A DNA stretch of 55,473 nucleotides from Candidatus Omnitrophota bacterium (GCA_013286575.1 JABDFL010000004.1:1-55473); one strand, 5' to 3'; positions 12,692 through 36,358 are shown, counted from the first letter of the stretch. Translations and numbers: made by a program. Notes: generated by a model from the sequence alone, not told the origin.

Positions 12692-14103
12692 GCTCTTCGA
12701 TTCAATTAGTCGTGATCGGCGCCGGTCCCGGTGGTTATGCTGCGGCTTTTTTAGCGGCAGACTTAGGCATGGAAGTGGCCATCGTCGAAAAAGAAATCAA
12801 CCCCGGCGGCGTTTGCCTCTACCGCGGCTGCATCCCTTCCAAAGCGCTTTTGCATACAGCCAAAATCATCAGTGAAGCCAAACATGCCAAAGCCTTTGGC
12901 ATTGAATATAACGACCCTAAAATAGATATTAATAAACTGCGGGACTGGAAAAAATCGGTGGTCAGCAAATTGACCGGCGGTTTGGGCCAATTGGCCCGTG
13001 CGCGTAAAATTAAATATTTTCAGGGAGAAGCCGCTTTCGTCAACTCCAATACCCTGAAAATCAAAAAGACTGACGGTTCCACCGAAGAATTATCATTCCA
13101 GAAAGCTATTTTAGCGACGGGTTCACGCCCGTCAGTCATCCCTAATTTACCTAAATCTCCTGATATCTGGGATTCCACAGGAGCCCTGGAATTAGAGAAT
13201 ATTCCTGGAAATTTATTGGTGGTCGGCGGCGGTTATATCGGCATGGAATTAGGCACCGTCTATCATGAATTGGGCTCCAAGGTTTCGGTCGTTGAAATGA
13301 CCCCGGGACTTTTGCCTGGCGCTGACCGTGATTTGGCAGACATTCTTTACAAGCGTGTTAAAGGCTTGTTTGCCAAGATCATGCTCGAGACCAAGGTCGT
13401 TAAAATGGAGGCTTCCGCGAAAGGCGGCATCACCGTGACCTTTGCTGACAAAGAAGGAAAAGAATTTAAAGAAGATTACAATAAAGTCCTGGTTTCTATA
13501 GGCCGTCGTCCCAATTCAGAAAATCTTGGCCTGGAAAACACCAAGGTCAAGGTCACTCCCCGCGGCTTTGTTGAAGTCAACGATCAACGCCAAACCGCAG
13601 ACCCAAGTATTTATGCCATCGGTGATATCGCCGGTGACCCTATGCTGGCCCATAAAGCCTCACACGAAGGCCGAGTGGCCGTAGAGACAATTGCCGGGCA
13701 CAAGGTGGCTTGGGAGCCGCAGGCCATCCCAGCGGTGGTTTTTACCGACCCTGAAATCGCCTGGTGCGGAATGACTGAAATCGATGCTGCCAAGGCCGGA
13801 CGTGAAGTAACGGTTGTTAAATTCCCGTGGGCCGCCTCAGGCCGTGCCTTGACCCTTGACCGCACTGATGGATTGACCAAACTTCTCATTGATCCTAAAA
13901 CCGAACGTGTTCTGGGTGTGGGAATTGTCGGGGTTGGGGCCGGAGAAATGATCGCTGAAGGGGTGGTGGCCATTGAAATGGGCGCCGTTGCCAAGGATTT
14001 AGCACTTTCCATCCATCCTCACCCGACGCTGTCAGAAACCATCATGGAAGCTGCCGAAAGCTTCTTCGGCCAGAGCACGCATATCTACAAGCCTAAGAAG
14101 TAG
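12688..14103 (+). CDS. lpdA: dihydrolipoyl dehydrogenase E3
   Basis: 471 aa with the FAD motif VVIGAGPGGYAAAF, the redox disulfide GGVCLYRGCIPSK and a C-terminal HPHPTLSE. Its start forms an ATGA overlap with the aceF stop. Confidence 0.95.
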   Translation: MSSSIQLVVIGAGPGGYAAAFLAADLGMEVAIVEKEINPGGVCLYRGCIPSKALLHTAKIISEAKHAKAFGIEYNDPKIDINKLRDWKKSVVSKLTGGLGQLARARKIKYFQGEAAFVNSNTLKIKKTDGSTEELSFQKAILATGSRPSVIPNLPKSPDIWDSTGALELENIPGNLLVVGGGYIGMELGTVYHELGSKVSVVEMTPGLLPGADRDLADILYKRVKGLFAKIMLETKVVKMEASAKGGITVTFADKEGKEFKEDYNKVLVSIGRRPNSENLGLENTKVKVTPRGFVEVNDQRQTADPSIYAIGDIAGDPMLAHKASHEGRVAVETIAGHKVAWEPQAIPAVVFTDPEIAWCGMTEIDAAKAGREVTVVKFPWAASGRALTLDRTDGLTKLLIDPKTERVLGVGIVGVGAGEMIAEGVVAIEMGAVAKDLALSIHPHPTLSETIMEAAESFFGQSTHIYKPKK

Positions 14104-17100
14104 CCCCCAAGAATTTCCTCAAATTTAACATCGGCTCAATACTGATAATCACCGGGACAAAACCGGGGGCGTTTTGCAATTCCTGGAGCTGTGCCGGATC
14201 AATATGAAATTTAATCCCCTGGCCGTTGTTTTGGACAGTTAAAGCTTTGTCAGAAGTCAAATCAATCCCACCTTTATCCTCTACCTTCATCGCTACATCA
14301 GCCGGCTGCAGGTCTTTCTTTGAAAAAATATACATCTGTTTTAGACGCCCGGCTCTTAAATAATTCAAAGGAATGGAAGTATTTATTGTAGTAAACCCTC
14401 TTTCTTCAAATATTCTTGCAGACAGATGGACTTCTGAAAATCCTGTGATTAGCAACTTACCACCATCATTTAGAAAATCATGCACTTCTGATACTAAAGC
14501 CAATGCCTGCTCTCTGGAAGCCACTTCAAAATTAAAGCCCCCACCAATTGAGGTAATAATATCCATTTTAGGAACGTTATCTTCGCTGGAAAAAAGGCTT
14601 TCTCCCTCAAGTAAATTCTTTGGAATAATCTGAATGTACATCGAAAGCCTCTCTTTGAAATCCTTTCGAACAGCATCTAAAACATTTAAATTTTGTTCAT
14701 TGCCTTCTGCCAGCCAATAGTGCATACGGGGCATATCCCTGCCTTGAAAATGTCGCACTAAAGCCTGATGAAATTTCTCTATAAAAGACCCATCACCGGC
14801 AAAAATATCCATCATATTTATGTCTTTTTGTCCTTTTGCTGCCATTTCATCTACCAACGAAACAACTGCACTTATCGCCATTGGATGAATGAACTCATTA
14901 TAAGCTTGCTTGGGTCGGGTATTTCGGACGGACCAGTCATACCAATAAGACAAAGGCATTGAGCGGGGCGCAGATAAGAAAGTTTCATCTTCAAATTCAT
15001 TGCCTTTCAGGAGTTTAAGGATATCGTAAAGCCAAACTTCTTCTTCAAGATTAAGAGGAACATACCTCTGTAAATCGGTGTCATACCATACATCCCGTCT
15101 ATCCCCCCTAAATGCAGTACCTTCCATGGGATTGGATATTATCTCCTTTGATATCCTTACATCCTGTAATACCCGTATATCTGCCTGATCAAGCCCTACA
15201 GGCAGGGCATTAATTCTGATTCTCATATCAGGATATTGTGAACGCACCTTTAATAGCGGAGAAGGAAGTTCTCTATTGAGAGGATTCCGGGCAATACTTT
15301 CATTGATTTGCCTGACTTTTCCAGCAATGGCCTTAACACGGGCCCTATCATCCATTTCCGGATGAGGGTTGAACACTCCATTTACAAATGCCCCTTTAAT
15401 AATTGGACTCATCGCCGCATCCCGGATTGGCTTCTTTTGTACTGCTCCTGAATCAATGACGACCATTTCTCCATTAGGCAACATGCCTAAATTGCCACTG
15501 TCATAATTTCTATAACTAACATCAATTAATACATAGCCCTGTGCTTCTAGTTTAGCATTGAGACGCCGAACGCCCGCATTTGTAATACCAGCCGTAATCA
15601 CTTTAGGTAGTCGTTCAACTGTCCAACCGCCAATTTTCTTAGAAACGGTAGGCTGAAGGACTCCATCAATATCAGGCCTGGGAGTTTGGTCTTTATTAAA
15701 ACGAATGACATCACCTTCCGGTGTTTCAAGCACTAATGCTTGAGTGCCTGCGCCTAATCCTTTAGTTCCCAAAGGAATTTCAGCTAAAAGATCATTCGCA
15801 TACCGGCTCTTTAAAATATCTTGTGCCCGGGGCTCAGGAACTTCCATCGCCTCACCATTTCTTACTACGTTACTTTTTCTTTTTAAACCTGATAATAGAT
15901 TTCTTCCATACTCAATTCTTTGGCCTTGTAAATCTAATTGGATGGCCTGATCGGGAGCGTCTGCTTCCAATCTTCTTATTAAAGATGTGATCCTCTGTCG
16001 TTTTGACAAATCGTCTTTTAAATCTTCGTCTTGTGCTAATGCCTTCTTCAGGAATTGAATTAATGTCACACGCATATTCTTTTGTGTTTTCACAAGCGCC
16101 TGCCGTTTAGAACCAGGATCTTTAAAATGCGCAAACTCCCTTTCAAACTCATTAAGGTCCAAATGTTCACAAAAATTGATTAAACGGGCCAGCTTTTCAA
16201 TATCAAATCGGCCATTGAAATGCCTTAAGAATGTGCCTACGGGGTACTGGTAAAAATAATCCGTGCTGAAAGTTTTATCAAAAGATGTCAGCAAATCAAA
16301 TGCGACAAGATGTGCCTTGCCATTCACGGAGAATATTTCGTAATTATGATGCTTACGAAAATCAATGTCCGTATGTTGCATTAAATAGGAAAAAGCCACT
16401 AACTCTTCAAGTCCATAATGTTCTGAGGAAATGGTTTCGGCATATTCTTCAATAGGCTGTATGACCAGAAAAAGTAAACCCGAAGGACTTTTGAAACCAA
16501 ATTTTTTCTCCAGCGGTACAGCTTCAACGCCTTTTATTAACCTTGTATCCGGAACATAGACACCAATTTTGCGGGCAATACTATAAGATAAATTTTCATT
16601 AGCTGTATTATCTGTATTGTCATACGCTTTAACGTAATACTCTTCTCCTTCCGGGCCATTAAGCCTATACACTCTCCTGTCTTTGCTAATAAGTCTGGAT
16701 TTCTCAAAGAAATCTGAACTTAATTTATCAATATCAAATTTAGGCGCGGCATTCGTCGCCGCATCATTTCTCGCCCGTATTTTCCTTAAGATCACTCCTT
16801 CATGTAACATTGTCAGAAGATCGTATCTATGATCTTCAAAACTCACAGGGCCCTTATTTAAAAAAACCCTTCCTGCGATTCCAGTATTGATCATTACCTT
16901 TATTGTTTCAATGTCTCTGTCATCGGCATAGATAATGATCGACTTACCAGGATGCGATTTCCAATAGATAGCCAATGCTTTTTCCAATCTCTGCAAAGCC
17001 TTTGGCTGCAAATGCAGCATCGGCACTGAAAATGCTTTTGCACCTGCGTATTTTGCAAACACTCTCCTATTAACAGCATTGTTGGACTGACTCATCAGGT

Positions 17101-19273
17101 GCGTGCCGATTCCAAGATTATCCAAATCATCGGAAGGGAAAATCACATTCATCGCCGCATCACCTGCCCTCATCACCGCCACGCCGCCTGAGCTCATGGC
17201 ACGGTCCATACCGGCCATAGCAATTTGATTGTACCGCGCTAAATATTGATATTGGTAAACGTCAATCAGTAAATACTTCGCCCCTTGCCGCCTTGCTTGT
17301 TCTAAACAAATTTTTCCAAGAAAAATTTCATTCCCTATTAATTCATAATAAGACCTCATGTATTCATTGACTCGAACGGGCCAGGCTTGGGCTGCAAGAA
17401 AATCATCAAGCTCATCTTCACGATAATATTCTTTCGTATCAGATATTCTCTCCATGACTCTAAAAAAATAATATAACATCGTTTTCTCATCAGGATTTTC
17501 TTGAAAAAACCTTATTACCTCTTCTCTTAACCCTTCCATCCTGACCCTCAAATCCCTGATACTATCTTGAAAGTCAACGGATCTCTTAGAGCTCGCACTG
17601 ACTATATTTAAATTGACTTTGTCACGAACAAGGGCAAATATAGCAGGACCGTAAAGGGCCCTCATCAGCTTATCAGCAGCTTCCCGGGCATCAATACGGT
17701 TTGTGTAGGCTGCCGAAGCACCACTAAAGATCATTTCTTCTCTTTCTTTAAAGAGACGAATATCGTCCTTGATCTCTTTTTCCTCCATATTTACTGCGAT
17801 AATCAGTTTCCCGGTACTATTTTCTGCCCTCATGTTCTTTAAGAATTCCGGGTAGGAGGAATCGAATTTTAATGTATTAAGCCTATACATAAGTTCTTTG
17901 ACCTCCTCTACATCCGGTTTTTTATCGCTAAAAAACACCTTCTTGATTTTTTCGACCAGATAAGCGGGAACACCGGGCCAACGATATTCAGCAGTACCTT
18001 CGGCTGCTTTTACAGGAGTCGGCAGGAATGCCGTAGTGGCTATTGTAGCCGCTGCTAATCCTAAGGCTTCCCGCCTTGTCAACACAGTGTCCAATTGCAT
18101 TGTTAAACCGAGTAGGCCTGTTTTATTGTTCGGAGGAGTCGCGGTTGCTGTGATGGCCGGATCCAATAAGGTCACGCCGCCGGAGAAATATTGCCTCGGG
18201 ACGAGCTGCTGTGTTATGGGGTCTTGTTCTTCTTTAATGTAGTTATAAGCGCCTTTTTTGAAGGCTTGGAGGTAGCGTTGGTAAATGACTTGGGGGGTAA
18301 AACTTTTATACCCTATTCCTACCACCTTACTTTTGTTTTCGTATACTTGTGCCAGGATGCTTGCTTTGATTTTCTTTTTGTACCAGGTGGCGAGGATGAG
18401 AGAATTATAGACCTGCCGTAGTTGGGCGAAATTTTTGTCCTGGTTGACTTCTTTGGTGAGTTCGGGGATGACTACTTCACGGACGACCTGGGAGCCGAGG
18501 GAACTGATACTGTTAAAAGATTGCTTCGCTGCGCTCGCAATGACACTGCTTTGCAATGACGAAGGAATTGGGCCTTTTGACACATTCTTGCTAAACGCTA
18601 AATAATCCTGCTCAAGCATGACTTTTAATTTGCTTTCGATGATATAGGCGGTGCCGGCTTGGGCATTTTCGTAGACTACGGCTTTTTCGGGGACTATCCA
18701 GACTTTGTTAAAAGTGTTGACCGGAATATTTGTTGTGCCGAATTTCTTTTGGGCTTCCTCATAAATCCGTTTCCAGAATTTCCTGCCTATTTCTCCTTCA
18801 GGATAAATTAAGCTGGCGGTGATTTGTTTGAGCATATAATCTTCAGCCAACAGGTCACGGCCCATTTCGGTTAGGCCGAAGCTTTGCGGAATGATGCGAT
18901 TTTTTTCGTAGGGGCTTAAGTTTACCCAGAGATCTTTTTCAGGGATGGTGAGGCTGGCGAGGAAGTATTTTATTAGTTTGGTGGATTCTTCTTTGATAAA
19001 AGATTGCTTCGTCGCTTCGGCTCCTCGCAATGACACCGAGGACAAATCACCTTTGTCTAAAATAAAATCGAAACGGAAAGGATTGTCGGGATGGATTTTG
19101 AGGCCTTTTAGTATGGGAGGATTGAATTCCGGGCTTAGGGGGACCATTATCCCTGGTTTTGGCAATAGGAATTCACCTGCCTGGGCCGTTGGTATAGGGC
19201 CAAACGTATTAGCTAAAAAAGCAATAATTAGCCCAAGAGCTATATTAGTTCTTAAATTTAGATACTTTCTCAT
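14093..19273 (-). CDS. giant exoprotein A (1726 aa): signal peptide, conserved N-module, unknown regions, two kinase-like domains, SAM methyltransferase, conserved C-module
   Basis: An uninterrupted 5.2-kb ORF starting at ATG 19271-19273. The signal peptide is IALGLIIAFLANTFGPIPTAQA/GEF. The N- and C-modules are shared with 24032..29623 and 32693..36358. The MTase motif I is MDIFAGDGSF. Confidence 0.9.
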   Translation of the reverse strand: MRKYLNLRTNIALGLIIAFLANTFGPIPTAQAGEFLLPKPGIMVPLSPEFNPPILKGLKIHPDNPFRFDFILDKGDLSSVSLRGAEATKQSFIKEESTKLIKYFLASLTIPEKDLWVNLSPYEKNRIIPQSFGLTEMGRDLLAEDYMLKQITASLIYPEGEIGRKFWKRIYEEAQKKFGTTNIPVNTFNKVWIVPEKAVVYENAQAGTAYIIESKLKVMLEQDYLAFSKNVSKGPIPSSLQSSVIASAAKQSFNSISSLGSQVVREVVIPELTKEVNQDKNFAQLRQVYNSLILATWYKKKIKASILAQVYENKSKVVGIGYKSFTPQVIYQRYLQAFKKGAYNYIKEEQDPITQQLVPRQYFSGGVTLLDPAITATATPPNNKTGLLGLTMQLDTVLTRREALGLAAATIATTAFLPTPVKAAEGTAEYRWPGVPAYLVEKIKKVFFSDKKPDVEEVKELMYRLNTLKFDSSYPEFLKNMRAENSTGKLIIAVNMEEKEIKDDIRLFKEREEMIFSGASAAYTNRIDAREAADKLMRALYGPAIFALVRDKVNLNIVSASSKRSVDFQDSIRDLRVRMEGLREEVIRFFQENPDEKTMLYYFFRVMERISDTKEYYREDELDDFLAAQAWPVRVNEYMRSYYELIGNEIFLGKICLEQARRQGAKYLLIDVYQYQYLARYNQIAMAGMDRAMSSGGVAVMRAGDAAMNVIFPSDDLDNLGIGTHLMSQSNNAVNRRVFAKYAGAKAFSVPMLHLQPKALQRLEKALAIYWKSHPGKSIIIYADDRDIETIKVMINTGIAGRVFLNKGPVSFEDHRYDLLTMLHEGVILRKIRARNDAATNAAPKFDIDKLSSDFFEKSRLISKDRRVYRLNGPEGEEYYVKAYDNTDNTANENLSYSIARKIGVYVPDTRLIKGVEAVPLEKKFGFKSPSGLLFLVIQPIEEYAETISSEHYGLEELVAFSYLMQHTDIDFRKHHNYEIFSVNGKAHLVAFDLLTSFDKTFSTDYFYQYPVGTFLRHFNGRFDIEKLARLINFCEHLDLNEFEREFAHFKDPGSKRQALVKTQKNMRVTLIQFLKKALAQDEDLKDDLSKRQRITSLIRRLEADAPDQAIQLDLQGQRIEYGRNLLSGLKRKSNVVRNGEAMEVPEPRAQDILKSRYANDLLAEIPLGTKGLGAGTQALVLETPEGDVIRFNKDQTPRPDIDGVLQPTVSKKIGGWTVERLPKVITAGITNAGVRRLNAKLEAQGYVLIDVSYRNYDSGNLGMLPNGEMVVIDSGAVQKKPIRDAAMSPIIKGAFVNGVFNPHPEMDDRARVKAIAGKVRQINESIARNPLNRELPSPLLKVRSQYPDMRIRINALPVGLDQADIRVLQDVRISKEIISNPMEGTAFRGDRRDVWYDTDLQRYVPLNLEEEVWLYDILKLLKGNEFEDETFLSAPRSMPLSYWYDWSVRNTRPKQAYNEFIHPMAISAVVSLVDEMAAKGQKDINMMDIFAGDGSFIEKFHQALVRHFQGRDMPRMHYWLAEGNEQNLNVLDAVRKDFKERLSMYIQIIPKNLLEGESLFSSEDNVPKMDIITSIGGGFNFEVASREQALALVSEVHDFLNDGGKLLITGFSEVHLSARIFEERGFTTINTSIPLNYLRAGRLKQMYIFSKKDLQPADVAMKVEDKGGIDLTSDKALTVQNNGQGIKFHIDPAQLQELQNAPGFVPVIISIEPMLNLRKFLGATS
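18516..18565. repeat. family-1 mini-repeat copy inside giant gene A (codons ~238-253)
   Basis: aaaagattgcttcgctgcgctcgcaatgacactgctttgcaatgacgaagg has the same AGATTGC...CTCGCAATGACAC termini as the other copies. Confidence 0.65.
18999..19036. repeat. family-1 mini-repeat copy inside giant gene A (codons ~79-92)
   Basis: aaagattgcttcgtcgcttcggctcctcgcaatgacac is nearly identical to the aceF right arm. Confidence 0.7.
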
Positions 19274-19289
19274 ATAGACAAAGTATGCC

Positions 19290-20777: not shown

Positions 20778-20784
20778 TGCGGAA

Positions 20785-21156
20785 TTAAATTTCCTGGCCT
20801 ATGGTATCTTTGACGACGCGGCGTATATCGTCGACCTCAAATGGTTTCTTTAAACATTCCACCGCCCCCAGGGAACGGGCCTGTTTGCGTTTTTCATCCA
20901 GGCTATAACCGCTCATCATCACCACCGGCAATCCCGGGCTGACAGCCCTTATTTTCTTGAGGACTTCCACACCATCATTGTCCGGCATTACCATATCCAT
21001 AAACGCGATATCAAATTGATGGTTTTTAACAGCTTCCATTGCCTCCGGAAGGTCATGGACGACCGTAATATGATGGCCGTAATAGCCCATGGTCAGGTTG
21101 AAAAAATCCCCGATGACTTTTTTATCGTCGACAACTAAAATATGAAGATGCTTCAT
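20785..21156 (-). CDS. stand-alone response regulator receiver (CheY-like)
   Basis: 123 aa with ILVVDD, the phospho-acceptor region DIAFMDMVMPDNDG, and KKPF. Confidence 0.85.
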   Translation of the reverse strand: MKHLHILVVDDKKVIGDFFNLTMGYYGHHITVVHDLPEAMEAVKNHQFDIAFMDMVMPDNDGVEVLKKIRAVSPGLPVVMMSGYSLDEKRKQARSLGAVECLKKPFEVDDIRRVVKDTIGQEI

Positions 21157-22025
21157 GCAGCACTCTCCTGATTAATTTTATCAAGATGGACACAGGGCAG
21201 CTTGACCGTAAAAATGGTGCCTTCCTGATTGCTTTGGACACTGATATTCCCCCCGTGTTCGTTGACCAAATCCTGGCACAAGGCCAAACCGATGCCTGAT
21301 CCCTGGGGTTTGGTGGAAAAAAACGGGTCAAAGATCCTGGCCTGGTGTTCGCGGGTAATGCCGGGCCCGTTATCTTTAAAAATGACAACAGCCTGGTTAT
21401 TTTCAACGTCATATTTCGAAGTCACCAGCAGGGTGCGCAGGGCCCCGTGAGGCATTTCACTTAAGGCCTCCATGGCATTGACGACGAGATTCATAAATAC
21501 CTGCTGCAGGTGCAAGGCATCCCCGAAAATCAACGGTACGGAATCGTCTAATTGCAGGTCCCATCCGATGCGGCGGATGCGCAGCTCATCGAGCAGTAAA
21601 TGAAAAGACTTATGGACGACAGTATTGATATTGATGTCTGTTTTCTGGATTTTCCGGTGGCGGATCAATTCCATCAGGTTGGCCAGCATGTCCTTGATGT
21701 AAAAAGACTGCTCATCCATCACACAGACAGGCTTATAAAAAGGGGAGTTGATGTCCATTTCTTTTTTCATAAAACGCACAAAACCATGGATGGCCGTGAT
21801 GGGCTGGCTGATTTGATGCAAAAGCCCGGCGCTCAGGGCCGCGACCGCCCCTTTTTTGCCGCTATCCATCAATTTGACCTGGGCTGTTTTTAATTCCTTG
21901 ATCGTGGTTTCCAGCTGCCGGTTTTTTTCTTTAAGGGCATGGTTAAGCCTGATGTTCTGGATAAAAAACCAGGCCAGGACAGCCAGCAGGATACAAACAA
22001 TGGAAAGATAAATGATGTGCAGCAT
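21153..22025 (-). CDS. sensor histidine kinase, minimal (one TM, no extracytoplasmic sensor domain)
   Basis: 290 aa with one TM helix, then a coiled coil. It has the H-box LLHQISQPITAIHGF, N-box VNAMEA, G1 DNGPGI and G2 GSGIGLALC. It overlaps the response regulator gene by 4 nt. Confidence 0.85.
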   Translation of the reverse strand: MLHIIYLSIVCILLAVLAWFFIQNIRLNHALKEKNRQLETTIKELKTAQVKLMDSGKKGAVAALSAGLLHQISQPITAIHGFVRFMKKEMDINSPFYKPVCVMDEQSFYIKDMLANLMELIRHRKIQKTDININTVVHKSFHLLLDELRIRRIGWDLQLDDSVPLIFGDALHLQQVFMNLVVNAMEALSEMPHGALRTLLVTSKYDVENNQAVVIFKDNGPGITREHQARIFDPFFSTKPQGSGIGLALCQDLVNEHGGNISVQSNQEGTIFTVKLPCVHLDKINQESAA

Positions 22026-23011
22026 TAGATTCCTTTAAAATCAAGCTTGTCCCCCACCTTCCAGTTATGAGAGGTGGTGTAACCGCTGTTAATTTCCAAA
22101 ACATAACGGGCTTTTCTGTCAGGCGTGTAAACCGGGCAAGGGTCACTCGTGCAAGCAGGGATATCATGGCCTATAAAGACAATATGGCCGTCGAGGCTTA
22201 TCCACAACATGTCCAGATTAAATTGCATATTTTTCATCCAGAATGACTGAAAGTCATCAAAAGTAAAAATAAAAAGCATGCCCTTGTCCCGGCCTAAACC
22301 TGTGCGGTACATCAACCCGCGGTCCATGTCCGCCTGTTTAGAAACCACCTCGACGCTCACGCAATCGTCCAGATGACAGACCTGCGGAGGCACTGCACCG
22401 GCATGGCAAACGCCGGAAAGCAAAAATATAAAAAAGAGCGCACTCACTCCAAATTTTTTCAGCATTGCTGCCAGCTTGGCCAAAGGCAGGCCTACCACGT
22501 TAAAATAACAACCCTCGATGCGCGGGATAAAAAGGGCGCCTTTGCCCTCGATATCAAAACCGCCTGCTTTATCCAGGGGAGAAACAAGCTGATGATAACG
22601 GTCGATCGCCTGATCAGTCAGTTTGGTCATAAACACCTTTGTTTTTTCCCAACCCATCTCGCGGCGTCCGGTCCCTGCATCGATGACAGCCACGCCTGAA
22701 TACACCCAATGCGGCCGGGCCATCAATTCTTTAAGATTCTTTTTCGCTTCCTGCATATTGCGAGGTTTAAGAATAAGCCTGCCCTTAGAAGAAAGCACCA
22801 CCGTATCTGAGCCGATGATTATCCCCTCGCCCAGGCGCTGGGCCACTTCCCTGGCTTTTCTCAAAGCATTGACCTGGACAAGATGGGCACAGCCATGGGT
22901 CAAACGCGTGATTTCCCGGGCCCGGCTTGGGGTGACTGTAAAAGGCAGCCCCAATATTTTCATAAGCTTTCGACGCTGAGGGCTAGCCGAAGCCAGGACG
23001 ATCTTTTTCAT
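22025..23011 (-). CDS. maf: Maf-like nucleoside-triphosphate pyrophosphatase fused in frame to a DUF192-type domain
   Basis: Residues 1-180 are Maf-like (IVLASASPQRRKLM...GGFDIEGKG...GLP). Residues 183-204 look like a signal peptide (MLKKFGVSALFFIFLLSGVCHA). The rest is DUF192-like (GMLFIF...MKNMQFNLDMLWI...YVLEINSG). Confidence 0.75.
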   Translation of the reverse strand: MKKIVLASASPQRRKLMKILGLPFTVTPSRAREITRLTHGCAHLVQVNALRKAREVAQRLGEGIIIGSDTVVLSSKGRLILKPRNMQEAKKNLKELMARPHWVYSGVAVIDAGTGRREMGWEKTKVFMTKLTDQAIDRYHQLVSPLDKAGGFDIEGKGALFIPRIEGCYFNVVGLPLAKLAAMLKKFGVSALFFIFLLSGVCHAGAVPPQVCHLDDCVSVEVVSKQADMDRGLMYRTGLGRDKGMLFIFTFDDFQSFWMKNMQFNLDMLWISLDGHIVFIGHDIPACTSDPCPVYTPDRKARYVLEINSGYTTSHNWKVGDKLDFKGI

Positions 23012-23861: not shown

Positions 23862-24031
23862 ATGCCCCCTGGTTAATTGGTCCTTTAAAATCTCTCCTGA
23901 GTCGATTAATTATATGGTAACACTATGTTGTCTGTCAAGTTATGTGGAGCTATCTTTGAAAATCATCTTTTGAATACAAAAACGCCCTTTAAGTTACTGT
24001 TTAGGTAGAAATTCGCTATAAAAACTTAATC

Positions 24032-27000: not shown

Positions 27001-29623
27001 ATATACTATCCAAAATAGTTTTGTTTATATCGTTTAAAACCGCTGTCTCAAAATGTGCTTTCTTTGTGGAAGAATAGATAAATACTGCATGACGAACCCA
27101 TTTATTTACCAACGGTGGTCTCATTAGCCTTTGAACAATTCCTATCTCTCTAAAAAGTGTTTCACTTGTTTCATTAATCCTCACTTCCAGTTCCGTATCT
27201 TTTTTAGGCACAGATTCCGATAACGTCACAATGATCACTTCCTTGGCTCCAGCATCCAATAATTTTCTCCGGATTTCCGTGGAAGTAAAACCCGTCCCCC
27301 AATGATCGTCCACAAGCAGTATCGTTTTCCCTCTTATTTGATCTAAATCTTTAATTTCATAAGCATCAATCACATTTAAAGCCTTGTTTAACAGACCTTT
27401 AACTAACTTCTGTTCTCTTCTCCGATCTATTTTTACAACAGATGAATTACCAACTGAAATATGGGATTTTTCTGATAAAACCATTAACAAAGGATCTAAT
27501 TGATTTTGCTGACCGTTTAATCGCGGGACACCAATAATTAAGTCTGGTTTAAGATTTTGAACACTCAAAGCTCGAATCACTTTTTCTGAAAATTTATCAG
27601 CCAATTGAAGCATTGCTTCAACATTCTTTTTAGTTTCAAAATATTGTATTGAAAAATTATCATAAATAAAGTTTGGATGGCTATGTGGAAACAAAACATT
27701 GAAGGTAATTACTGGGTGTTTGTAAGAAGTCAGTGACAAATTACTTTCAGCGGTGTTCAAATTCGCTATGCCATATTTCAACAATTCCGTAACCCAATAA
27801 TATCCAACGTCAGCTGAAACACTTTTCCCGGTAAACATAAAAGAAGGGCTTTCTTCATAACTGCTTTTGGCAGCCGACGAAAGATAATTAAAAACACCTG
27901 TTTTGACCAAGTCATCCTGTGTCTCAAAATATATTCTCTGGATCAACGTTCGGATAACTTCTAATACTTCTTCATGTTTTTGCGTTTCTACTTCATATTG
28001 TTTTAAAAGACTTGCTAAGGTATCAAGCTTTGATTCCACCGGCTCCGTTCCTGGCATCACACTATTTAAAATGGCTTGATACCTTTGCGCTGTCTCACTT
28101 AAACCTCTTATACGTAACCTAAAAACTTCAAAAGCAACTTTTAAAGCCAAATATTCTCTATTAAAAAGACCCTGCCCACGATTTTGAGCGATCTTGTAAG
28201 CTTCTTTGGAAATATAATCAATACGTCCCTTACTAACAATCCAATAAAATGAATCACTTGCCGGATTTAAAACAAACTCAGCTGGGACAACCCCTCTCCC
28301 TCTATCTGTAGCGATATAATCTGTGAAAAAAATGGGCTGATAATAAATTTTATCTCCCGATTTTTTAATTCTTATTAAACCAAACTCTTTACTAATAACT
28401 AACTGTCCATTTTGTAATTGACTATATAAAACAATACCATCTCTATACTCCAATGATGCACTCATCGCTGGGTCAATTCTGACATTAACTATTTCACTAT
28501 CATTACCGGAAGGCATGTTCCATTGATGCAAAATTATCATGGCCGAATCAATTTTCAAGATTGTCATATTAAGCAATACCCCACCCGAAAAATATTTCCT
28601 TGGAATAGTCTCTTGAGTCACAGGGTCTTGTTCTTCTTTAATATAGTTATAAACACCTTTTTTAAACGCCTGTAAATACCGTTGATAAATTTTTTGCGTT
28701 TCTTGCGGGTCATCAATATTCACTCCAGCCACCTTCTTCTTATCGGCATACACCTGCTCTAGAATACAGTCCTTAATTTTATTTTTGTACCAAGTGGCTA
28801 AGATGAGACTGTTATAAATTTGGCGTAATTGAGAGAAATTTTTGTTCTCGTTAACTTCTTTTGTTAATTCGGGGATGACGATTTCGCGGACGATTTGGGA
28901 GCCTAAAGCACTCGTGTTCTGGATTCCCGCTTTCGCAGGAATGACATTGTGAGAGAGTGCTAGGTAATCTTGCTCAAGCATTACCTTCAATTTACTTTCA
29001 ACAACATACGCCGTACCAGCCTTAGCATTCTCATATACCACAGCTTTTTCTGGCACAATCCAAACTTTATTAAATGTGTTGACGGGGATATTCGTTGTAC
29101 CAAATCTTTTCGTAACTTCTTCGTAAATACGTTTCCAAAATTTCTTACCAATCTCCCCTTCAGGATAGATTAGGCTGGCCGTTACCTGCTTGAGCATATA
29201 ATCTTCGGCCAGTAAATCCCTGCCCATCTCAGTCTGGCCAAATGATTCTGGGACTATGCGGTTTTTTTCGTAAGGACTTAGATTGACCCAGAGGTCTTTT
29301 TCAGGAATGGTTAAAGAGGCAAGGAAATACTTAATCAACCTACTAGATTCATCTTTGAGAGCGTCATTAGATAATTGGCTGTCACCTTTATCTAAGATAA
29401 AATCAAAACGAAATGGATTGTCAGGATGGACTTTGATTCCTTTAAGGACTGGCGGATTAAATACAGGACTCAAATACACCATTACCCCAGGCGCAGGCAG
29501 ACGAAATTCATCTGCCTTGACTTGAGGTATAGGACCAATTGTATTAGCAAAAAATACCAATAAAATGATAAAAGATTGCCCCGGCCTAAAAAACAGGCCT
29601 CGCAATGACATATAACTCCGCAT
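24032..29623 (-). CDS. giant exoprotein B (1863 aa): signal peptide, conserved N-module, ComF-like PRTase, double-HKD phospholipase D, ART-like, HAD/FCP1-like phosphatase, conserved C-module
   Basis: An uninterrupted 5.6-kb ORF with ATG at 29621-29623 and a second ATG at 29609-29611. Motifs are listed in the findings. The N- and C-modules are shared with the other two giant genes. Confidence 0.9.
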   Translation of the reverse strand: MRSYMSLRGLFFRPGQSFIILLVFFANTIGPIPQVKADEFRLPAPGVMVYLSPVFNPPVLKGIKVHPDNPFRFDFILDKGDSQLSNDALKDESSRLIKYFLASLTIPEKDLWVNLSPYEKNRIVPESFGQTEMGRDLLAEDYMLKQVTASLIYPEGEIGKKFWKRIYEEVTKRFGTTNIPVNTFNKVWIVPEKAVVYENAKAGTAYVVESKLKVMLEQDYLALSHNVIPAKAGIQNTSALGSQIVREIVIPELTKEVNENKNFSQLRQIYNSLILATWYKNKIKDCILEQVYADKKKVAGVNIDDPQETQKIYQRYLQAFKKGVYNYIKEEQDPVTQETIPRKYFSGGVLLNMTILKIDSAMIILHQWNMPSGNDSEIVNVRIDPAMSASLEYRDGIVLYSQLQNGQLVISKEFGLIRIKKSGDKIYYQPIFFTDYIATDRGRGVVPAEFVLNPASDSFYWIVSKGRIDYISKEAYKIAQNRGQGLFNREYLALKVAFEVFRLRIRGLSETAQRYQAILNSVMPGTEPVESKLDTLASLLKQYEVETQKHEEVLEVIRTLIQRIYFETQDDLVKTGVFNYLSSAAKSSYEESPSFMFTGKSVSADVGYYWVTELLKYGIANLNTAESNLSLTSYKHPVITFNVLFPHSHPNFIYDNFSIQYFETKKNVEAMLQLADKFSEKVIRALSVQNLKPDLIIGVPRLNGQQNQLDPLLMVLSEKSHISVGNSSVVKIDRRREQKLVKGLLNKALNVIDAYEIKDLDQIRGKTILLVDDHWGTGFTSTEIRRKLLDAGAKEVIIVTLSESVPKKDTELEVRINETSETLFREIGIVQRLMRPPLVNKWVRHAVFIYSSTKKAHFETAVLNDINKTILDSIFANNVVEEWALLLREGLITQSDLGRRVQRLILIMAESMLGAVIKGQAKTEENKELIKELISQKPLNQILHEKGQDISDGLMFFEANALLDHFSGNIYDSTDGRILGREEARANMNSRSRFYFFDETSAISVQNLKPDEAMVSNDKSPAQEEYRLRWIEHQGVHILPIGETFDGGRILRQLVTDARRSILIDMYSFHDNSVWDLLKQKAIEGIEVKVIIGKNVKRLTKKQSELIQSIQKEEINNLQIIFYRPERNRQFVMAAPSPDDHKKLIIIDGQYVYIGCDNLSFFRGRTAGLIVHSIHGLKEFEDIFWENWYWAHGQRYAFRATKNPWGQILRERSIEDNTRFAYIQEILKAKKRIYISQWHLNDDLIVQVLKMKLRNDPKIDIRVLLNGVEKKFQLFPLYIPYVRSLPAYDKLQSSSVPVRWSNPKGLFDHRKLLIADNTVITGSSDLTPRAYYGNQELGIRLENSQLAEYFSKIFIEDWGVAENRDGNIQEKITSYFINWFSRKIQRANTFIDLYLTDFSETTVRWYFFLIGKASRFIKKLFGFDLKEFHEATEVLYRGVDGEELERINDRGELMPSIFGAKNNIYTHMGVFLTTSYRKAFNYATIKTMRNSGSYVLTLGIQRQQRLFHLNGVGEKEYEKWVQLNFGGAHEDLLPVYLMMHHFDGYYFERYPSVSTVVLIHGRDLELLKVDSINEEAGTDSSTQGKKNVIDQNGFIDGSVYEEQFIKNERTMSRERPTVVFDMDHTILDKRRTFLGSVSIIRPGIIDELNKLKTMGYRLVLWTRSPKKAVRKYLLSNSEMYGLFELIITGDNGLSAWNPGVSNSVRKEYYQSLFKKYSEKYNEYKPIGLFKYRLLVDDKSDIFGGASSYVIKPFLDNKVDTEPIDQLANRIDAMVKFPRIEVTSHDAWKELTDGAMTAKGGIDLTPANMNLQTQNSGSEIRFHLDPAMLQQLQNAPGFVPVIINIQPLKSLSQFLGLTQSTTLK
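28921..28947. repeat. family-2 hairpin mini-repeat inside giant gene B (codons 227-235)
   Basis: ggattcccgctttcgcaggaatgacat has an 8-bp stem ATTCCCGC/GCAGGAAT (one mismatch) with a 4-nt loop. Confidence 0.7.
29571..29610. repeat. family-1-like variant at the 5' end of giant gene B
   Basis: aaagattgcc-ccggcctaaaaaacaggcc-tcgcaatgaca has conserved termini. Its interior is replaced by a GGCCT/AGGCC hairpin. Confidence 0.45.
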
Positions 29624-29731
29624 AAGTGAAGTATAAACTATCTATATACTTTCTGCCACTTTTAGACCTTTTGAACCTTAAAAACTGACTAGAAGGAAGG
29701 CTGGTTTGTTTGGTTGTAGTTTTATAATTAT

Positions 29732-30442
29732 GTGATGTACAATATAAATATGGTAACATACGTCATGCTTCAAGCCTTTTTACAGGGAGCTTTTGAACTT
29801 ATTTTCCCTGACAATTGCCTGCTCTGCCGGCAATTCCTTAATAGCCGCCACCAGCGACAGCTATGCCCTCATTGCCTGGGCTCCCTGGCCTTTAATCCAA
29901 ACCCCTTTAGCCGGCAATCAACATCCGGCTCATTTGCTTTTGACCAGGCATGGTCGGTTTGTCTTTATAATGAACCAGCCCAAAAGCTGCTCCATGCTTT
30001 TAAATACAATTCCAAAACATCCCTCAGTAAAACCTTTGTCCCTTTAATGATTGATTTCATCGACCGCCATCATGTTCCCGTGCAGCTGTTTGACTTGATC
30101 GCTCCCATCCCCCTGCATCCGGTGAGACTGCGGGAACGGGGGTACAATCAATCTGCTCTTTTGAGTCTTGCCTTAAGCCGGCACTACGGAATTTCACATT
30201 CAGAGGACCTGTTGATACGCCAGAAAATGACATCTAGCCAGACGGAATTAGGGGCAAAACAACGCTGGACAAATATGGAAGGGGCTTTTAGAATAAAAAA
30301 TCCGTCGGAAGTTGAAGGTAAAAGTGTCGTGCTTGTTGATGACCTTTTTACCACAGGCGCTACCGTGCACAGCGCCGCGGAAACCTTAAAATCAGCCGGT
30401 GCTGCCAGGGTTGGAGCGTTGACTTTCAGTATAACTATTTAA
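29732..30442 (+). CDS. comF: ComF family protein (zinc-ribbon plus phosphoribosyltransferase domain)
   Basis: Cys pairs CLLC...CPHC, PIPLHPVRLRERGYNQS, and the PRT loop VVLVDDLFTTGATV. The true start may be an internal Met (MLQAF...). Confidence 0.75.
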   Translation: MMYNINMVTYVMLQAFLQGAFELIFPDNCLLCRQFLNSRHQRQLCPHCLGSLAFNPNPFSRQSTSGSFAFDQAWSVCLYNEPAQKLLHAFKYNSKTSLSKTFVPLMIDFIDRHHVPVQLFDLIAPIPLHPVRLRERGYNQSALLSLALSRHYGISHSEDLLIRQKMTSSQTELGAKQRWTNMEGAFRIKNPSEVEGKSVVLVDDLFTTGATVHSAAETLKSAGAARVGALTFSITI

Positions 30443-30443
30443 T

Positions 30444-31532: not shown

Positions 31533-31542
31533 GCATGAGATT

Positions 31543-32655: not shown

Positions 32656-32692
32656 ACGCGGCTGGGGCCGGAAGCCTGTTACAGGAAAGTTA

Positions 32693-35600
32693 TTATTGGA
32701 TAAAATTCAGAAGATCGGCAATGGGGGTAATGCCGACAATAACTCCACGCAGGCCCCGTGAGTTTAAAACCATGTCTTCGAGGGCCTTATCGCTGACAAC
32801 ATCCGTCATGACGCGACCTTGACGGTCCATAGGAATGTTGCTGAGCTTGATACCGCCGGGAATATTCATGGCTGTATCAGAAACCCCCACTACTAAAGAT
32901 TGACCGGTCTTTTCAACTTTCTCGAGCTCTTGGACAAAATCAAACAGCTTGTCCATTGCTCTCTTAGTTAGCTTTATTTTGCCTCGTGTCTCAGGCTCCT
33001 GTTTAAGCGCATTAAGTTCTTCTCTCAAACTTTCTTTCAAGGGAGCTAATACGGGACTTTCACCATAAAGATAATTAAGATGAGATAATATGTCTGCACT
33101 CCCCGGACGATTGTGAAATTCCAAGGGGGTGATGTCACCGAATGCCTCAAGGAAAGGACTTAACCCATTGCCATTCTTATATACTTCTTCACCCTTATTA
33201 TCCTTCCAAACAAATGGCCCTCCAATTTCATTTAGCAAATACAATGCTTCATCACGGTCAATTGATAGTGGCGGGGTTTCCCCAGCTTTAATCTCTATTG
33301 GTGGGGGTTCATGTTCCCAATTTTCTTCTTTATCCCACTGTTCTTCAAAATGGGCACGTCTTTTTTCAAACTCTGCAATGGGATTGGCACTGCCTCCATT
33401 TAAAACGTCGAAAGCAATACCATATTCATTAATCATACGATAAATGGATACCTTTTGATGAGCGGCCCGAAAAGCCTCTTCCATCACTTGATATCGTTGT
33501 CCATTTCCAGGATTTCGATACATGTCAACGAATTCTTGCATATATGCGGCAAACTGCCGCCGACCTTCTTCATAAAATCGGGTCAGTGCCCATTGTTCCT
33601 TGTGTTGAAACGCCCATATAATTCTGCGAAATTCAGCACTATGTTCACCATTGCGTTTCGCATGTTCAAAATCAAAAGGATTTACTAACCATCCACTAAC
33701 TCCGGGCTTGATCCATTCCAATGGGCCTCCAGTCGCCGTAGCAATAGATGGGTGGCCATTTAAAGCCGCTCGTTCATCACTTGTACCAGATGCCTCCCGG
33801 GTCAGCCATGGCATGACCAACCAGCAATCAGTTGCTGATGTTGCAAATTTCATGAATTCTGTTCCTGTTGTTCTTTCAATGATTACAAATTTTCCTTTAA
33901 TATCAGGTTCCAGGGACAGCTGTGTTAATGCACTCACCCACTCAGGGGCTACACCATCAAGAGCTTCGCCAGCCAATAAAAGGTTTGCTCCGAGCCCCTT
34001 CCTTGGCCCTAATGGCGAGTCGTACACTTTATTTGGGTCTCCCACAATCCACCTGACCATAGGAATGAACAGGGCCTGAGATTTATATTCTACCATCCTT
34101 CGAACAGCGCCAAATAATGGCCGCTTGTGAATGTCAGCAAAACCCTCCAATCCCATACCTCTCAAATATTCATTTAGCTTGTATTTCTGGTTTGATCCTA
34201 TATCAAACAGATCCTTCCCGGTAATATTTGCTATCCCTTTTCTTGAAATGAGTCTGTTAAGATCATCAGAGCGCCACAGGGACGGCAAAGATCCATTTTG
34301 GATACCGGTTGTTTTGTCCGCAAAACCGGGCAAAACTGCTTCACGGGTAACATCAGCATGCTCCAACGAAACACCATTGATCATATGCGCATGATGGCCC
34401 ATAGCTCCAGCTGCATTCACTTGCCCGTTATATATAATATCGTCTCGCACAAGATCAGCACCTACCAAGTCTTTTAGCTTACCAACGTCCTTCCAAACAG
34501 GTAATGCCGCTGCTTCAGGTGTATGAGTTGTCATTAAAAACTTGGTTTCAGCAAAAATGCTCCGTTCACCTTTTTGTCTTTTTGCATCAATATCGTTCAA
34601 TACGGCCGTCATGACAAAAATTAATTGTGGCTCGCTTAATCGTAATATGCGAGGAGCAATGCCTAAAGCATAACAAAGTTCAACATAAGCCTTACCCATA
34701 AAACCATATTGTATGACTTGTTCGTCGCCTCCCGGGTACAACCTTTTAAACAGGTTGCGTTGTTTGATACCAAATACAGGAGTCCCATTAGCATCGACCC
34801 AGTAGATATAAGCACGTTCTTTTTTCCCTTTGAAATCCACATCAATGGAAAGCGCATGGTTATTTCCTTTTCCATCTTGAACAATAACAGGATGGACCCC
34901 TTCTTGGTGGTCCCAATCAACTTCGACACCATTCTTGTCATAGCTATAAAGCGGCATAGCGCCTGCGGCATTCCAATTTGGCAATAACTCGCTATAGGCT
35001 TGGTAGGTTTCTCCCGCCAGAAAACCAAGCCCTCCTTTGCCTAACGCTAATTGAGCCGTCCCCTTAATAGCAGATAAGAAAGCTTCAAGAGTTACATCAG
35101 TGACAACCCCGCTCCCTTCTGGATTTTGTAAATTGGCAATAACCCCCTCAGGGCCGTTTATAATCCGCAATCGTTTCCCGTGATAAAGCGCCTTGGGTGG
35201 CTCACTTGAAGTAACGCTTCGAATATCAACCCGCATATCATATATTTGTTCATCTCCTAAGACATCTAAACTCGTAACCATTGCGGGTTCACGTAGAATT
35301 TGTTGATCTACAAAACCGCCGGAGAAATATTTCCTGGGAACAGGCTGCTGGCCTGACCGGGTCATCTCTTCTTTAATATAGCTGAAGACACCCTTCTTAT
35401 AGGCAGACAGGTATTGATGGTAGATACGGTCTTTATTCTTTGGATCGCTGAGATCAATACCCGCGACTTTATTACGCCCGGAATAAACTTTATTGAGGAC
35501 CGATTTTTTAAAAACGTCCTGATACCATTGGGCCAGGATGAGGGCGTACAATATTTGCCTTAACGGCGCAAAATTCTTGCCTTCATTGACTTCATTCTCT

Positions 35601-36358
35601 ATGGCAGGGAGAACAACTTCACGTAAGACCTGCTTGGATAGATTCCTGACAGTATTATTTTTCTGCGCATTGATGTTCTCGCCCAATTTGTTTAGGGCCA
35701 AATAATCCTCTTCAAGCATGACCTTAAGATGCGCATTGACAATGTAAACCGTATTGCCCTTTTCAAATACCGACGCTTTCTCAGGAAGGATCCATACCTT
35801 ATTAAATACATTGACCGGGACCTGGGTAACGCCGAATTTCCGGTAAGCTTGCGTATACACTTTGTTCCAAAATGTTTTACCTAAATTGCTCTCCGGATAA
35901 ATAAGGGAAGCCGTGATTTGTTTGAGCATGTAGTCTTCTGCCAAAAGGTCACGGCCAAGTTCTGTTTTGATCAAGGTATCCGGGATAATGTGGTTTTTCT
36001 CGACCGGGGAAAGATTGACCCAAAGATCCTTTTCAGGTGTCGCCAAAGAAGCCAGGAAATAATTAACCATGCGCTGGGACACTTTCTTAAAATTGTCAGC
36101 GCTTAATCTTTCATCGCCGGGATCTACGATAAAATCAAACATGAAGGGATTTTCAGGATGGACTTTCAGGCCCTTGATCAAAACAGGCTTAAAAGCCGGA
36201 CTTAAACTTACTCTGGTTCCCGGTTTCGGTAAGAAAAATGACAAGCCGGATATATCAACAGATTGGGCATGGGCAGGCGGCAGGAATATTGATGTTCCCA
36301 AAAAACTGATTGAGACCCAAAGGGCCAAAAAGCGTCGGAAAATGATGATCGGTCTCAC
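32693..36358 (-). CDS. giant exoprotein C (1221 aa): signal peptide, conserved N-module, alpha-glucan phosphorylase-like domain, helical region, divergent C-module
   Basis: An uninterrupted 3.7-kb ORF with the signal peptide FLALWVSISFLGTSIFLPPAHA/QS. GT35-like strings include GGLGFLAGE, THTPEAA, INGVSLEH, GIQNGS and REASGTSDERAALNG. Confidence 0.9.
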   Translation of the reverse strand: MRPIIIFRRFLALWVSISFLGTSIFLPPAHAQSVDISGLSFFLPKPGTRVSLSPAFKPVLIKGLKVHPENPFMFDFIVDPGDERLSADNFKKVSQRMVNYFLASLATPEKDLWVNLSPVEKNHIIPDTLIKTELGRDLLAEDYMLKQITASLIYPESNLGKTFWNKVYTQAYRKFGVTQVPVNVFNKVWILPEKASVFEKGNTVYIVNAHLKVMLEEDYLALNKLGENINAQKNNTVRNLSKQVLREVVLPAIENEVNEGKNFAPLRQILYALILAQWYQDVFKKSVLNKVYSGRNKVAGIDLSDPKNKDRIYHQYLSAYKKGVFSYIKEEMTRSGQQPVPRKYFSGGFVDQQILREPAMVTSLDVLGDEQIYDMRVDIRSVTSSEPPKALYHGKRLRIINGPEGVIANLQNPEGSGVVTDVTLEAFLSAIKGTAQLALGKGGLGFLAGETYQAYSELLPNWNAAGAMPLYSYDKNGVEVDWDHQEGVHPVIVQDGKGNNHALSIDVDFKGKKERAYIYWVDANGTPVFGIKQRNLFKRLYPGGDEQVIQYGFMGKAYVELCYALGIAPRILRLSEPQLIFVMTAVLNDIDAKRQKGERSIFAETKFLMTTHTPEAAALPVWKDVGKLKDLVGADLVRDDIIYNGQVNAAGAMGHHAHMINGVSLEHADVTREAVLPGFADKTTGIQNGSLPSLWRSDDLNRLISRKGIANITGKDLFDIGSNQKYKLNEYLRGMGLEGFADIHKRPLFGAVRRMVEYKSQALFIPMVRWIVGDPNKVYDSPLGPRKGLGANLLLAGEALDGVAPEWVSALTQLSLEPDIKGKFVIIERTTGTEFMKFATSATDCWLVMPWLTREASGTSDERAALNGHPSIATATGGPLEWIKPGVSGWLVNPFDFEHAKRNGEHSAEFRRIIWAFQHKEQWALTRFYEEGRRQFAAYMQEFVDMYRNPGNGQRYQVMEEAFRAAHQKVSIYRMINEYGIAFDVLNGGSANPIAEFEKRRAHFEEQWDKEENWEHEPPPIEIKAGETPPLSIDRDEALYLLNEIGGPFVWKDNKGEEVYKNGNGLSPFLEAFGDITPLEFHNRPGSADILSHLNYLYGESPVLAPLKESLREELNALKQEPETRGKIKLTKRAMDKLFDFVQELEKVEKTGQSLVVGVSDTAMNIPGGIKLSNIPMDRQGRVMTDVVSDKALEDMVLNSRGLRGVIVGITPIADLLNFIQ

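Follow-up and report, generated by a model that had tools for sequence, protein, structure and literature searches.

Proteolysis at defined places has been described for several large modular proteins of bacteria: in CdiA, precise proteolysis takes out a four-residue junction motif, VENN, and the identity of the residue left at the new N-terminus is important (PMC9424206); in MARTX, the regions between effectors are cut and each effector is released (PMC6315884); and in LapA, a di-alanine site past the retention module is cut by LapG (PMC10990149). Here, we examine a tetrapeptide, D-x-A-M, that recurs in three giant proteins—A, B and C—encoded on the minus strand between positions 14093 and 36358 of a 55,473-nucleotide stretch of DNA from a Candidatus Omnitrophota bacterium (GCA_013286575.1, JABDFL010000004.1:1-55473), which we call the window. 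The Omnitrophota, abundant and uncultured, often have ultra-small cells and are suspected of a life on other cells; most of their large proteins are unexplained. The original prediction held that the tetrapeptide marks the junctions between modules in all three proteins and might be a processing site, a recombination scar or a linker recognised by an export machine. Pfam, NCBIfam, the PDB and the literature searched, which included Seymour 2023 and a 2026 preprint on long proteins, describe neither this tetrapeptide nor the protein family that carries it.

Translation of the three minus-strand open reading frames (ORFs) reproduced exactly all 15 tetrapeptide positions that had been quoted, including DAAM 1285-1288 of A at nucleotides 15410-15421. 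D-x-A-M in its exact form occurs ten times in the 4810 residues of A, B and C, where amino-acid composition predicts 0.40 copies (Poisson p = 2.2e-11). Not one of 20000 per-protein shuffles held ten or more copies, and among 8000 patterns of the form a-x-b-c the motif ranked first, the next best reaching p = 1e-5. The remaining 34 ORFs of the window contain three copies against 1.6 expected, which is no enrichment. This strong excess in A, B and C, together with its absence from the other window ORFs, establishes that the enrichment is real and specific to the three proteins, and so upholds the earlier impression that the frequency of the motif is not random.

A, B and C are members of a large, unnamed protein family of Candidatus Omnitrophota. 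All three match both family hidden Markov models (HMMs; N-module E <= 1e-180, C-module E <= 3e-27) and contain the motif. The family architecture runs from a cleavable-looking general secretory (Sec) signal through a strongly conserved N-module of about 320 residues, terminating in RKYFSGG, and a variable string of one to about six cargo cassettes, to a conserved C-terminal module of about 57 residues with the pattern GGIDL...FHLDPAMLxQLQNAPGFVPVIINIQP...FLGL. Cassettes are mostly 200-800 residues long; some are entire proteins, and some begin with a Sec, twin-arginine translocation (Tat) or lipoprotein signal of their own. By a signal-peptide heuristic, 88 of 89 family N-termini carry a Sec-type signal, with A-x-A sites.

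A database search with the N-module of B returned 1465 proteins, the source-named matches being from Candidatus Omnitrophica/Omnitrophota apart from one from Minisyncoccia. Scanning one genome per species gave 543 relatives; the best 80 loci, nearly all from Omnitrophota metagenome-assembled genomes (MAGs), were combined with the window to form our locus set (ORFs called heuristically; loci labelled L###), and a single MAG holds at least 13 of these best 80. The set comprises 876 ORFs, 99 with an N-module, 75 with a C-module and 65 with both, reaching 3066 residues in length. A C-module profile built from 126 sequences matched 4426 clusters at 50% identity, 1731 of them at E <= 1e-10, and the module stood at the extreme C-terminus in 150/150 clusters among the matches listed. 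The N-terminal 350 and C-terminal 57-70 residues common to the three proteins have no family match in Pfam or NCBIfam. Sequence searches of the PDB with A, B and C gave weak phosphoribosyltransferase (PRTase), phospholipase D (PLD) and phosphorylase matches and left the end modules unmatched, and in PADLOC and PHROGs scans cargo domains were the only matches. A few ORFs consist of cargo and a C-module without an N-module (L020 13244-15244; L020 3889-7428, minus strand; L079 15756-17348); each starts with its own Met and adjoins a full family gene, which indicates that the C-module can function without an N-module on the same chain.

The motif is a property of this whole family. The 109 family ORFs from the 80 loci and the window contain 248 copies of D-x-A-M where 12.2 are expected, while the 767 neighbouring non-family ORFs of the same loci contain 21 against 24.4 expected. 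Conservation in homologs was likewise evident among 120 database matches to the N-module (96 copies versus 4.6), and 73 independent cluster representatives of at least 400 residues gave 193 versus 7.1. The family counts include paralogs, though the 22-residue contexts of the 248 copies are all unique, so the copies are not duplicates of one inherited segment. Outside the N- and C-modules, D-x-A-M is enriched 20.8-fold, N-x-A-M 5.8-fold and S-x-A-M 2.5-fold, and every other substitution at D, A or M stays at or below 1.6-fold. The junction signature of the architecture is thus [D>N>S]-x-A-M. The E/G-x-A-M, D-x-A-I and D-x-A-T forms that had been counted as variants are, like D-x-A-L, at most about 1.2-fold enriched and do not form a class with it; Leu, Ile and Val are no substitute for Met, and IDAM (B 1770-1773) falls outside the pattern altogether. 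At the x position Q, R, H and A are preferred, and flanking residues are essentially unconstrained.

At the DNA level, the Asp codons of the 248 sites (GAT 170, GAC 78) follow overall usage, Ala is encoded by all four of its codons, and no position from -18 to -1 or from +12 to +29 carries more than about 0.2 bit. Ala codons ending in G or C are in surplus before the ATG, a surplus also seen before other Met codons and stronger in background genes. With synonymous codons free and flanks uninformative, selection acts on the peptide rather than on the DNA. This bears directly on the proposal that the motif is a recombination site or scar driving cassette exchange. The motifs do coincide with the ends of homology blocks common to paralogs, and integrase genes recur near family loci, yet the only fixed bases are those encoding D, A and M, synonymous positions are at normal codon usage (the G/C-ending Ala before ATG being general in these genomes), and the flanking DNA is unconserved, with the adjoining 18 nucleotides essentially uninformative at no more than about 0.15 bit per position, and no repeats found. 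We therefore reject a DNA-level recombination site, which we regard as barely credible. The idea of an alternative genetic code in which the x codon is a hidden stop was also ruled out, x codons being diverse.

The 248 copies fall in four places: 91 lie 1-65 residues past YFSGG, 31 lie 1-15 residues before GGIDL, 94 are internal, and 32 are inside the C-module in the context FHLDPAMLxQLQ. The gap from the motif Met to GGI(D/K)L, given at the outset as 4-6 residues, measures 5 in A and 3 in both B and C, and ranges from 1 to at least 15 across the family. BLAST homology blocks between paralogs end within 20 residues of an internal motif in 20 of 66 cases, compared with 5.8 +/- 2.7 at random (a count of 20 was reached in 0/2000 permutations), and fewer blocks span a motif than span random positions (7 versus 16.4 +/- 3.3). 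Pfam domains tell the same story: the motif follows DnaJ 521-580 and HATPase 1655-1753 of L038 at 595 and 1763, HATPase 1248-1355 of L033 at 1355, and DnaJ 1243-1300 of L071 at 1303. Distances between successive motifs are bimodal, with 73 of 10-50 residues, 104 of at least 200 and only 18 of 50-200 where about 69 are expected, which shows that motifs separate protein-sized units and are often paired within one linker. In B, the motif-bounded units (388-1010 and 1015-1791) are protein-sized, and domain boundaries inside them lack the motif. The claim of junction marking accordingly holds family-wide, but not for all junctions, as not every domain boundary has a motif. We also looked at whether the linker past the N-module might be a degenerate first half of the C-module; for B 374-392 the HMM domain E-value was 99, and the likeness is a visual impression only.

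The overall confidence of the AlphaFold2 models is moderate (mean pLDDT, the predicted local distance difference test score, of 65 and 68); in that of P0050, a short family member of 667 residues, the N-module is confident, with blocks mostly at 80-97, while the linker motifs DMAM 403 and DAAM 597 sit in segments (371-426 and 581-607) with pLDDT below 50. Foldseek found nothing at E <= 0.001 in PDB or BFVD for this model. Mapping onto domain boundaries thus places motifs in low-confidence linkers, at the edges of cassettes and 0-15 residues past Pfam domain ends; the C-module copy stands at the start of a predicted helix. That copy invites an explanation in which the motif is passive—a helix cap or linker stabiliser, or a relic of whole-gene fusion whose Met was a former start and came down with a duplicated junction element—with no trans-acting factor. 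Asp caps the only predicted helix of the C-module, position 1 takes exactly the classical N-cap residues (D, N and S), and cassettes resemble captured whole genes. A relic Met, however, would drift to Leu, Ile or Val, and D-x-A-[LIV] is not enriched; the residues after Met are neither helix-like nor conserved at linker sites; the linker copies in P0050 are coil; and a 20-27-fold enrichment over hundreds of non-homologous linkers argues for active selection. We give a passive role only a slim chance.

We scanned 45 residues after each [DN]-x-A-M Met with a signal-peptide heuristic, setting aside five false positives in C-modules: a signal-peptide-like segment was found at 18 of about 270 sites, against 33/2530 (1.3%) for other internal Met residues. 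These signals are of Sec, Tat or lipoprotein types. DEAM-LSKRKIGTLLALTISLTVLMPSGAAYA exemplifies the signal-peptide-like segments, DRAM-SSDMGRRQFLSKLG and DLAM-KAKTSRRDFLE (also DRAM-SSDMGRRQFLSKLGIAIAGVSAGV and DLAM-KAKTSRRDFLETSVRAVIVAGLG) the twin-arginine kind, and DVAM-...ALAGIVLSGAAVFSLVGC the kind whose segment holds a lipobox (SLVGC). L079 has a tandem duplication in which each unit consists of Met, a signal peptide and a HEAT-like domain of about 290 residues, with D-x-A-M at each seam. The window itself encodes a stand-alone, membrane-anchored HATPase_c protein of 290 residues between A and B (21153-22025, minus strand), and cassette 1063-1357 of L033, bounded by DRAM and DLAM, aligns with it from Met to C-terminus; such full-length homology between a cassette and a separate gene is direct evidence that cassettes are the equivalents of whole genes. 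A database search for stand-alone relatives of the Tat-signal cassette of L080 gave no matches. In L069, one TAA (L069 2275-2295) is all that stands between the ORF of the N-module and the in-frame ORF of cargo and C-module, the seam reading GAT TAA GCC GCG ATG, or D-stop-A-A-M, with the TAA two codons upstream of A-A-M. This stop might reflect a sequencing error, a nonsense mutation of recent date, read-through or a natural gene fission at the junction. Cassettes are thus whole-protein equivalents, with the motif Met as their first residue.

A Met that begins a protein might also be where translation begins, so that cassettes would also, or mainly, be made separately and their signal peptides would acquire a free N-terminus. 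The strict need for ATG fits such internal starts, as do signal peptides that commence directly at the motif Met, the downstream ORF of the split L069 gene beginning at such a Met, and the many fragment ORFs that gene callers start there. Set against this, a Shine-Dalgarno core precedes 11% of motif ATGs, close to the 9% of other internal ATGs and far from the 33% of ORF starts; Asp and Ala are kept as amino acids with variable codons, and the upstream RNA is uninformative; the GTG and TTG equivalents, D-x-A-V and D-x-A-L, are not enriched; and tolerance of Asn or Ser at the Asp position is a pattern of amino acids. Together, the codon, flank and Shine-Dalgarno data leave initiation led by a Shine-Dalgarno sequence unsupported, and we think it quite improbable that internal starts explain the motif.

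We favour the view that D-x-A-M is the junction and processing signal of a polyprotein-like system, cut at or near the bond between A and M, and put the chances of this at about even. An endoprotease would recognise the motif and cut at or beside A|M, with Asp at P3, Ala at P1 and Met at P1', freeing the N-module, every cassette and the C-module from a polyprotein-like precursor, so that each freed unit would begin with Met like a native protein; the cutter might be an enzyme dedicated to the task or else a conserved module of the family itself. Processing accounts for why the Met is strict, why units start like proteins, why spacing is bimodal and why the motif is confined to proteins with N- and C-modules. 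Among the roles first proposed for the motif, a processing site that releases cassettes comes out best on the new evidence, though we infer the cleavage itself from sequence.

Several observations weigh against processing. Searches of A, B and C turned up no protease family (Pfam/NCBIfam at E <= 0.01; cassettes at E <= 0.5; PADLOC and PHROGs), and no protease recurs among neighbours of family genes in the 80 loci and the window. The N-module is without a structural relative in PDB or BFVD, which makes a role for it in self-processing pure conjecture. About half of C-modules hold D-P-A-M inside, at the start of a helix, where by the structural model it may be a helix N-cap rather than a cut site; about half have no [DNS]xAM within 25 residues upstream; and one full-length family member has no motif at all. 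Tandem copies 10-50 residues apart would free short peptides of no obvious use, and Asp at P3 is unlike the small or aliphatic P3 usual for Ala-x-Ala peptidases. The Sec signal of the precursor also clashes with internal Sec and Tat signals, which are usable only if the chain is cut in a cytoplasm.

A bolder form of the processing model—possible, but rather doubtful—is that these are true bacterial polyproteins, in which complete pre-proteins joined head to tail would be cut exactly at D-x-A|M by a dedicated activity, each unit then being routed separately. Many units would keep working Sec, Tat or lipoprotein signals and regain a native Met N-terminus. The setting might be the Omnitrophota cell itself, which would then have an 'operon within a protein', or a prey or host cell into which the N- and C-modules have delivered the chain, the Sec and Tat machinery of the victim doing the routing. 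Cargo such as a J-domain, a HipA-like kinase, a PsyrT/ShosT-like PRTase and a DrmC-like PLD nuclease fits an effector role.

Alternatively, the motif might stay uncleaved and serve as a docking site for machinery of chaperoning, export or sorting that works through the precursor one unit at a time. Such machinery might hold cassettes unfolded or pass them to a secretin or other outer-membrane channel, with the C-module as a terminal secretion signal. The placement of motifs in low-confidence linkers with unconserved flanks suits this idea, and so do the copy inside the C-module, the position of that module at the extreme C-terminus and the presence of a secretin gene within the window (1743-3569). 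The C-module modelled alone by AlphaFold2 is unfolded and of low confidence (predicted template modelling score, pTM, 0.24), as for a peptide that folds on a partner. Docking nevertheless leaves unexplained both the frequent complete signal peptide or protein start at the Met and the fact that Leu, Ile or Val cannot replace this residue, and no conserved partner gene lies beside family genes. We consider it unlikely.

The three proteins, all on the minus strand, are laid out as follows. Protein A (1726 residues; 14093-19273) consists, by ORF translation and HMMs, of a Sec signal, N-module, four cassettes and C-module. Signal peptide and N-module occupy residues 1-367 (18173-19273), ending in YFSGG at 362-366 (HMM match 31-367, hmmsearch E = 1.5e-189). 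Downstream of the N-module, the first cassette starts at Met392 with a Tat-like signal, read from the sequence as MQLDTVLTRREALGLAAATIATTAFLPTPVKA and also as TRREALGLAAATIATTAFLPTPVKA (18005-18100); this junction lacks a canonical D-x-A-M, and the stretch gives a weak Pfam match to a PsbQ transit-peptide region. A tandem pair, DRAM 690-693 (17195-17206) and DAAM 705-708 (17150-17161), forms the next linker, after which residues 709-1140 make up a weakly HipA-like kinase cassette, the only cargo match in A. DAAM 1285-1288 closes cassette 1144-1285. Residues 1160-1288 of A share 41% identity (BLAST) with 1734-1856 of L065, where the cassette likewise ends in a motif, DQAM; L065 then passes directly to its C-module, whereas A interposes another cassette. 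DVAM 1659-1662 (14288-14299) stands five residues before GGIDL, and the C-module (residues 1668-1726; 14096-14272; HMM match 1668-1723, hmmsearch E = 2.8e-31) has DPAQ internally instead of DPAM.

Protein B (1863 residues; 24032-29623) carries cassettes 388-1010 and 1015-1791 between its N- and C-modules. Signal peptide and N-module (residues 1-350; 28574-29623; hmmsearch E = 6.8e-194) are followed by DSAM 359-362 (28538-28549), ten residues past YFSGG, and by a second copy, DPAM 384-387 (28463-28474). DEAM 1011-1014 (26582-26593) divides the PRTase cassette from the PLD/HAD cassette: by Pfam and NCBIfam, the former has a ComF-like PRTase at about residues 660-802, and the latter has two PLD domains (1049-1358), the first beginning at residue 1049 downstream of the motif, and a HAD phosphatase (1607-1740). 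In PADLOC, the PRTase resembles the toxins PsyrT and ShosT, and the PLD resembles DrmC. DGAM 1792-1795 (24239-24250) lies three residues before GGIDL of the C-module (residues 1799-1855; 24059-24229; hmmsearch E = 9e-34). The remaining copy, DPAM 1824-1827 (24143-24154), had been listed as a junction; it sits instead within the conserved C-module (FHLDPAMLQQLQ), where its Asp caps the only helix predicted by AlphaFold2 (66-73 of the modelled fragment, PAMLQQLQ). Protein C (1221 residues; 32693-36358) has an N-module, one cassette of about 800 residues resembling alpha-glucan phosphorylase or GT1, and a divergent C-module (residues 1168-1221; 32696-32857; hmmsearch E = 2.9e-27). Its copy past the N-module, EPAM 357-360 (35279-35290), is non-canonical, E-x-A-M being without enrichment in the family; DTAM 1161-1164 (32867-32878) is three residues before GGIKL.

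The cargo regions of A and B (14001-18000 and 24001-30000) have a GC content of 0.36-0.42 and a strongly negative GC skew, and the surrounding genes a GC content of 0.46-0.50, which suggests that the AT-rich, skewed cassettes differ from their neighbours in origin or in constraints. Two small PRTase genes flank B (23008-23565, minus strand; 29732-30442, plus strand), one with a ComF-like double zinc ribbon. Short palindromic DNA elements resembling miniature inverted-repeat transposable elements are found in frame within variable loops of N-modules, at 18998-19042 (residues 78-92) and 18509-18550 (residues 242-255) in A and at 28910-28951 (residues 225-238) in B; examples are GTCATTGCGAGGAGCCGAAGCGACGAAGCAATC, read as VSLRGAEATKQS, and GTCATTCCTGCGAAAGCGGGAATCC, read as VIPAKAGIQ. 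The peptides VIPAKAGIH and DSRFRGND from such elements recur in both end modules of homologs, and also in L045 8833-9456, an unrelated ORF. The secretin gene (minus strand; Pfam Secretin and Secretin_N_2) is followed on the same strand by ORFs at 565-1746 and 71-568, neither with a Pfam match; about 10 kilobases from the giant genes, it could provide an outer-membrane channel for their export.

Among the family at large, cargo includes J-domains (the DnaJ matches of L038 and L071 given above), HATPase_c and HEAT repeats (L033, L079), domains that are normally cytoplasmic and odd in proteins starting with a Sec signal. The commonest neighbours of family genes are tyrosine integrases, in two clusters of eight and four members (such as L012 2125-3372 and L054 2141-3277), and a tetratricopeptide-repeat (TPR) membrane protein of about 640 residues (L028 14316-16241 and 11 relatives), with 12 members in 11 loci. 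Riboflavin genes also recur.

These results define a family that runs to thousands of modular proteins, with many paralogs in one genome, and one strict rule, four residues long, for the places where their units meet. Were D-x-A-M a cleavage code, it would provide a rare case of polyprotein expression in bacteria, would allow the mature products of thousands of 'hypothetical' giants to be predicted from sequence and would imply a hitherto unrecognised protease or secretion route. Even in the event of no cleavage, the motif offers a practical marker for cutting giant proteins into cassettes for annotation and structure prediction.

Of the described systems, CdiA shares a four-residue motif at the seam of a conserved delivery region and variable cargo (PMC3150448, PMC9424206), but Omnitrophota cargo is internal, with both ends conserved, and the motif occurs several times per protein. 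In 75/75 locus ORFs, as in the cluster representatives, the C-terminus is the conserved module rather than a variable toxin. Pfam and NCBIfam gave no match in A, B or C to a TPS domain, FHA repeats or PT-VENN, nor to the RHS or YD repeats which, with a DPxGL autoproteolysis motif, are hallmarks of Rhs. Genes downstream in the window are housekeeping, and no immunity-like gene was noticed beside family genes, no systematic search for such genes having been made. MARTX resembles the family in being a giant protein with conserved ends around variable effector cassettes (PMC4453568, PMC6315884, PMC2900308). It has RTX-type repeats, a cysteine protease domain activated by inositol hexakisphosphate and type I secretion without a Sec signal, unlike the Omnitrophota proteins with their Sec-type N-termini. 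Pfam and NCBIfam returned no RTX or repeat match for A, B or C, the N-module model of P0050 is helical/beta without repeats, and no Peptidase C80 type protease was detected in A, B or C (E <= 0.01) or in cassettes (E <= 0.5). LapA, too, combines an N-terminal module, a nearby short Ala-containing site, a long variable middle and a conserved C-terminus; its TAAG-type di-alanine site occurs once and is cut by a periplasmic BTLCP protease of the same system, and the protein itself, an adhesin made of repeats, leaves by type I secretion (PMC10990149). No LapG, LapD or RTX signatures were found in A, B, C or their neighbours in the window. The resemblance to MARTX, CdiA/Rhs and LapA is thus architectural only, no domain that defines those systems having been found here.

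Sorting signals compare in the same way. C-modules gave no NCBIfam match to the C-terminal domain of type IX secretion (T9SS CTD), PEP-CTERM, LPXTG, GlyGly-CTERM or PGF-CTERM, and their end, ...IINIQPxxxLxxFLGL, has neither the hydrophobic helix nor the basic tail of sortase-type signals. At the level of the site itself, the nearest parallels are the birnavirus VP4-type proteases, which use a Ser-Lys dyad and cut viral polyproteins at (S/T)-x-A|(S/A), and signal peptidase I with its Ala-x-Ala rule. On the processing model, D-x-A-M shares with these a site defined by P3 and P1, an Ala at P1 and a location at the seams of polyproteins, and Ser is tolerated at P3 here too, as the enrichment of S-x-A-M attests. 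No protease domain of this kind was detected in our searches, and it is the Asp or Asn at P3, together with an obligatory Met at P1', that sets the Omnitrophota motif apart from both.

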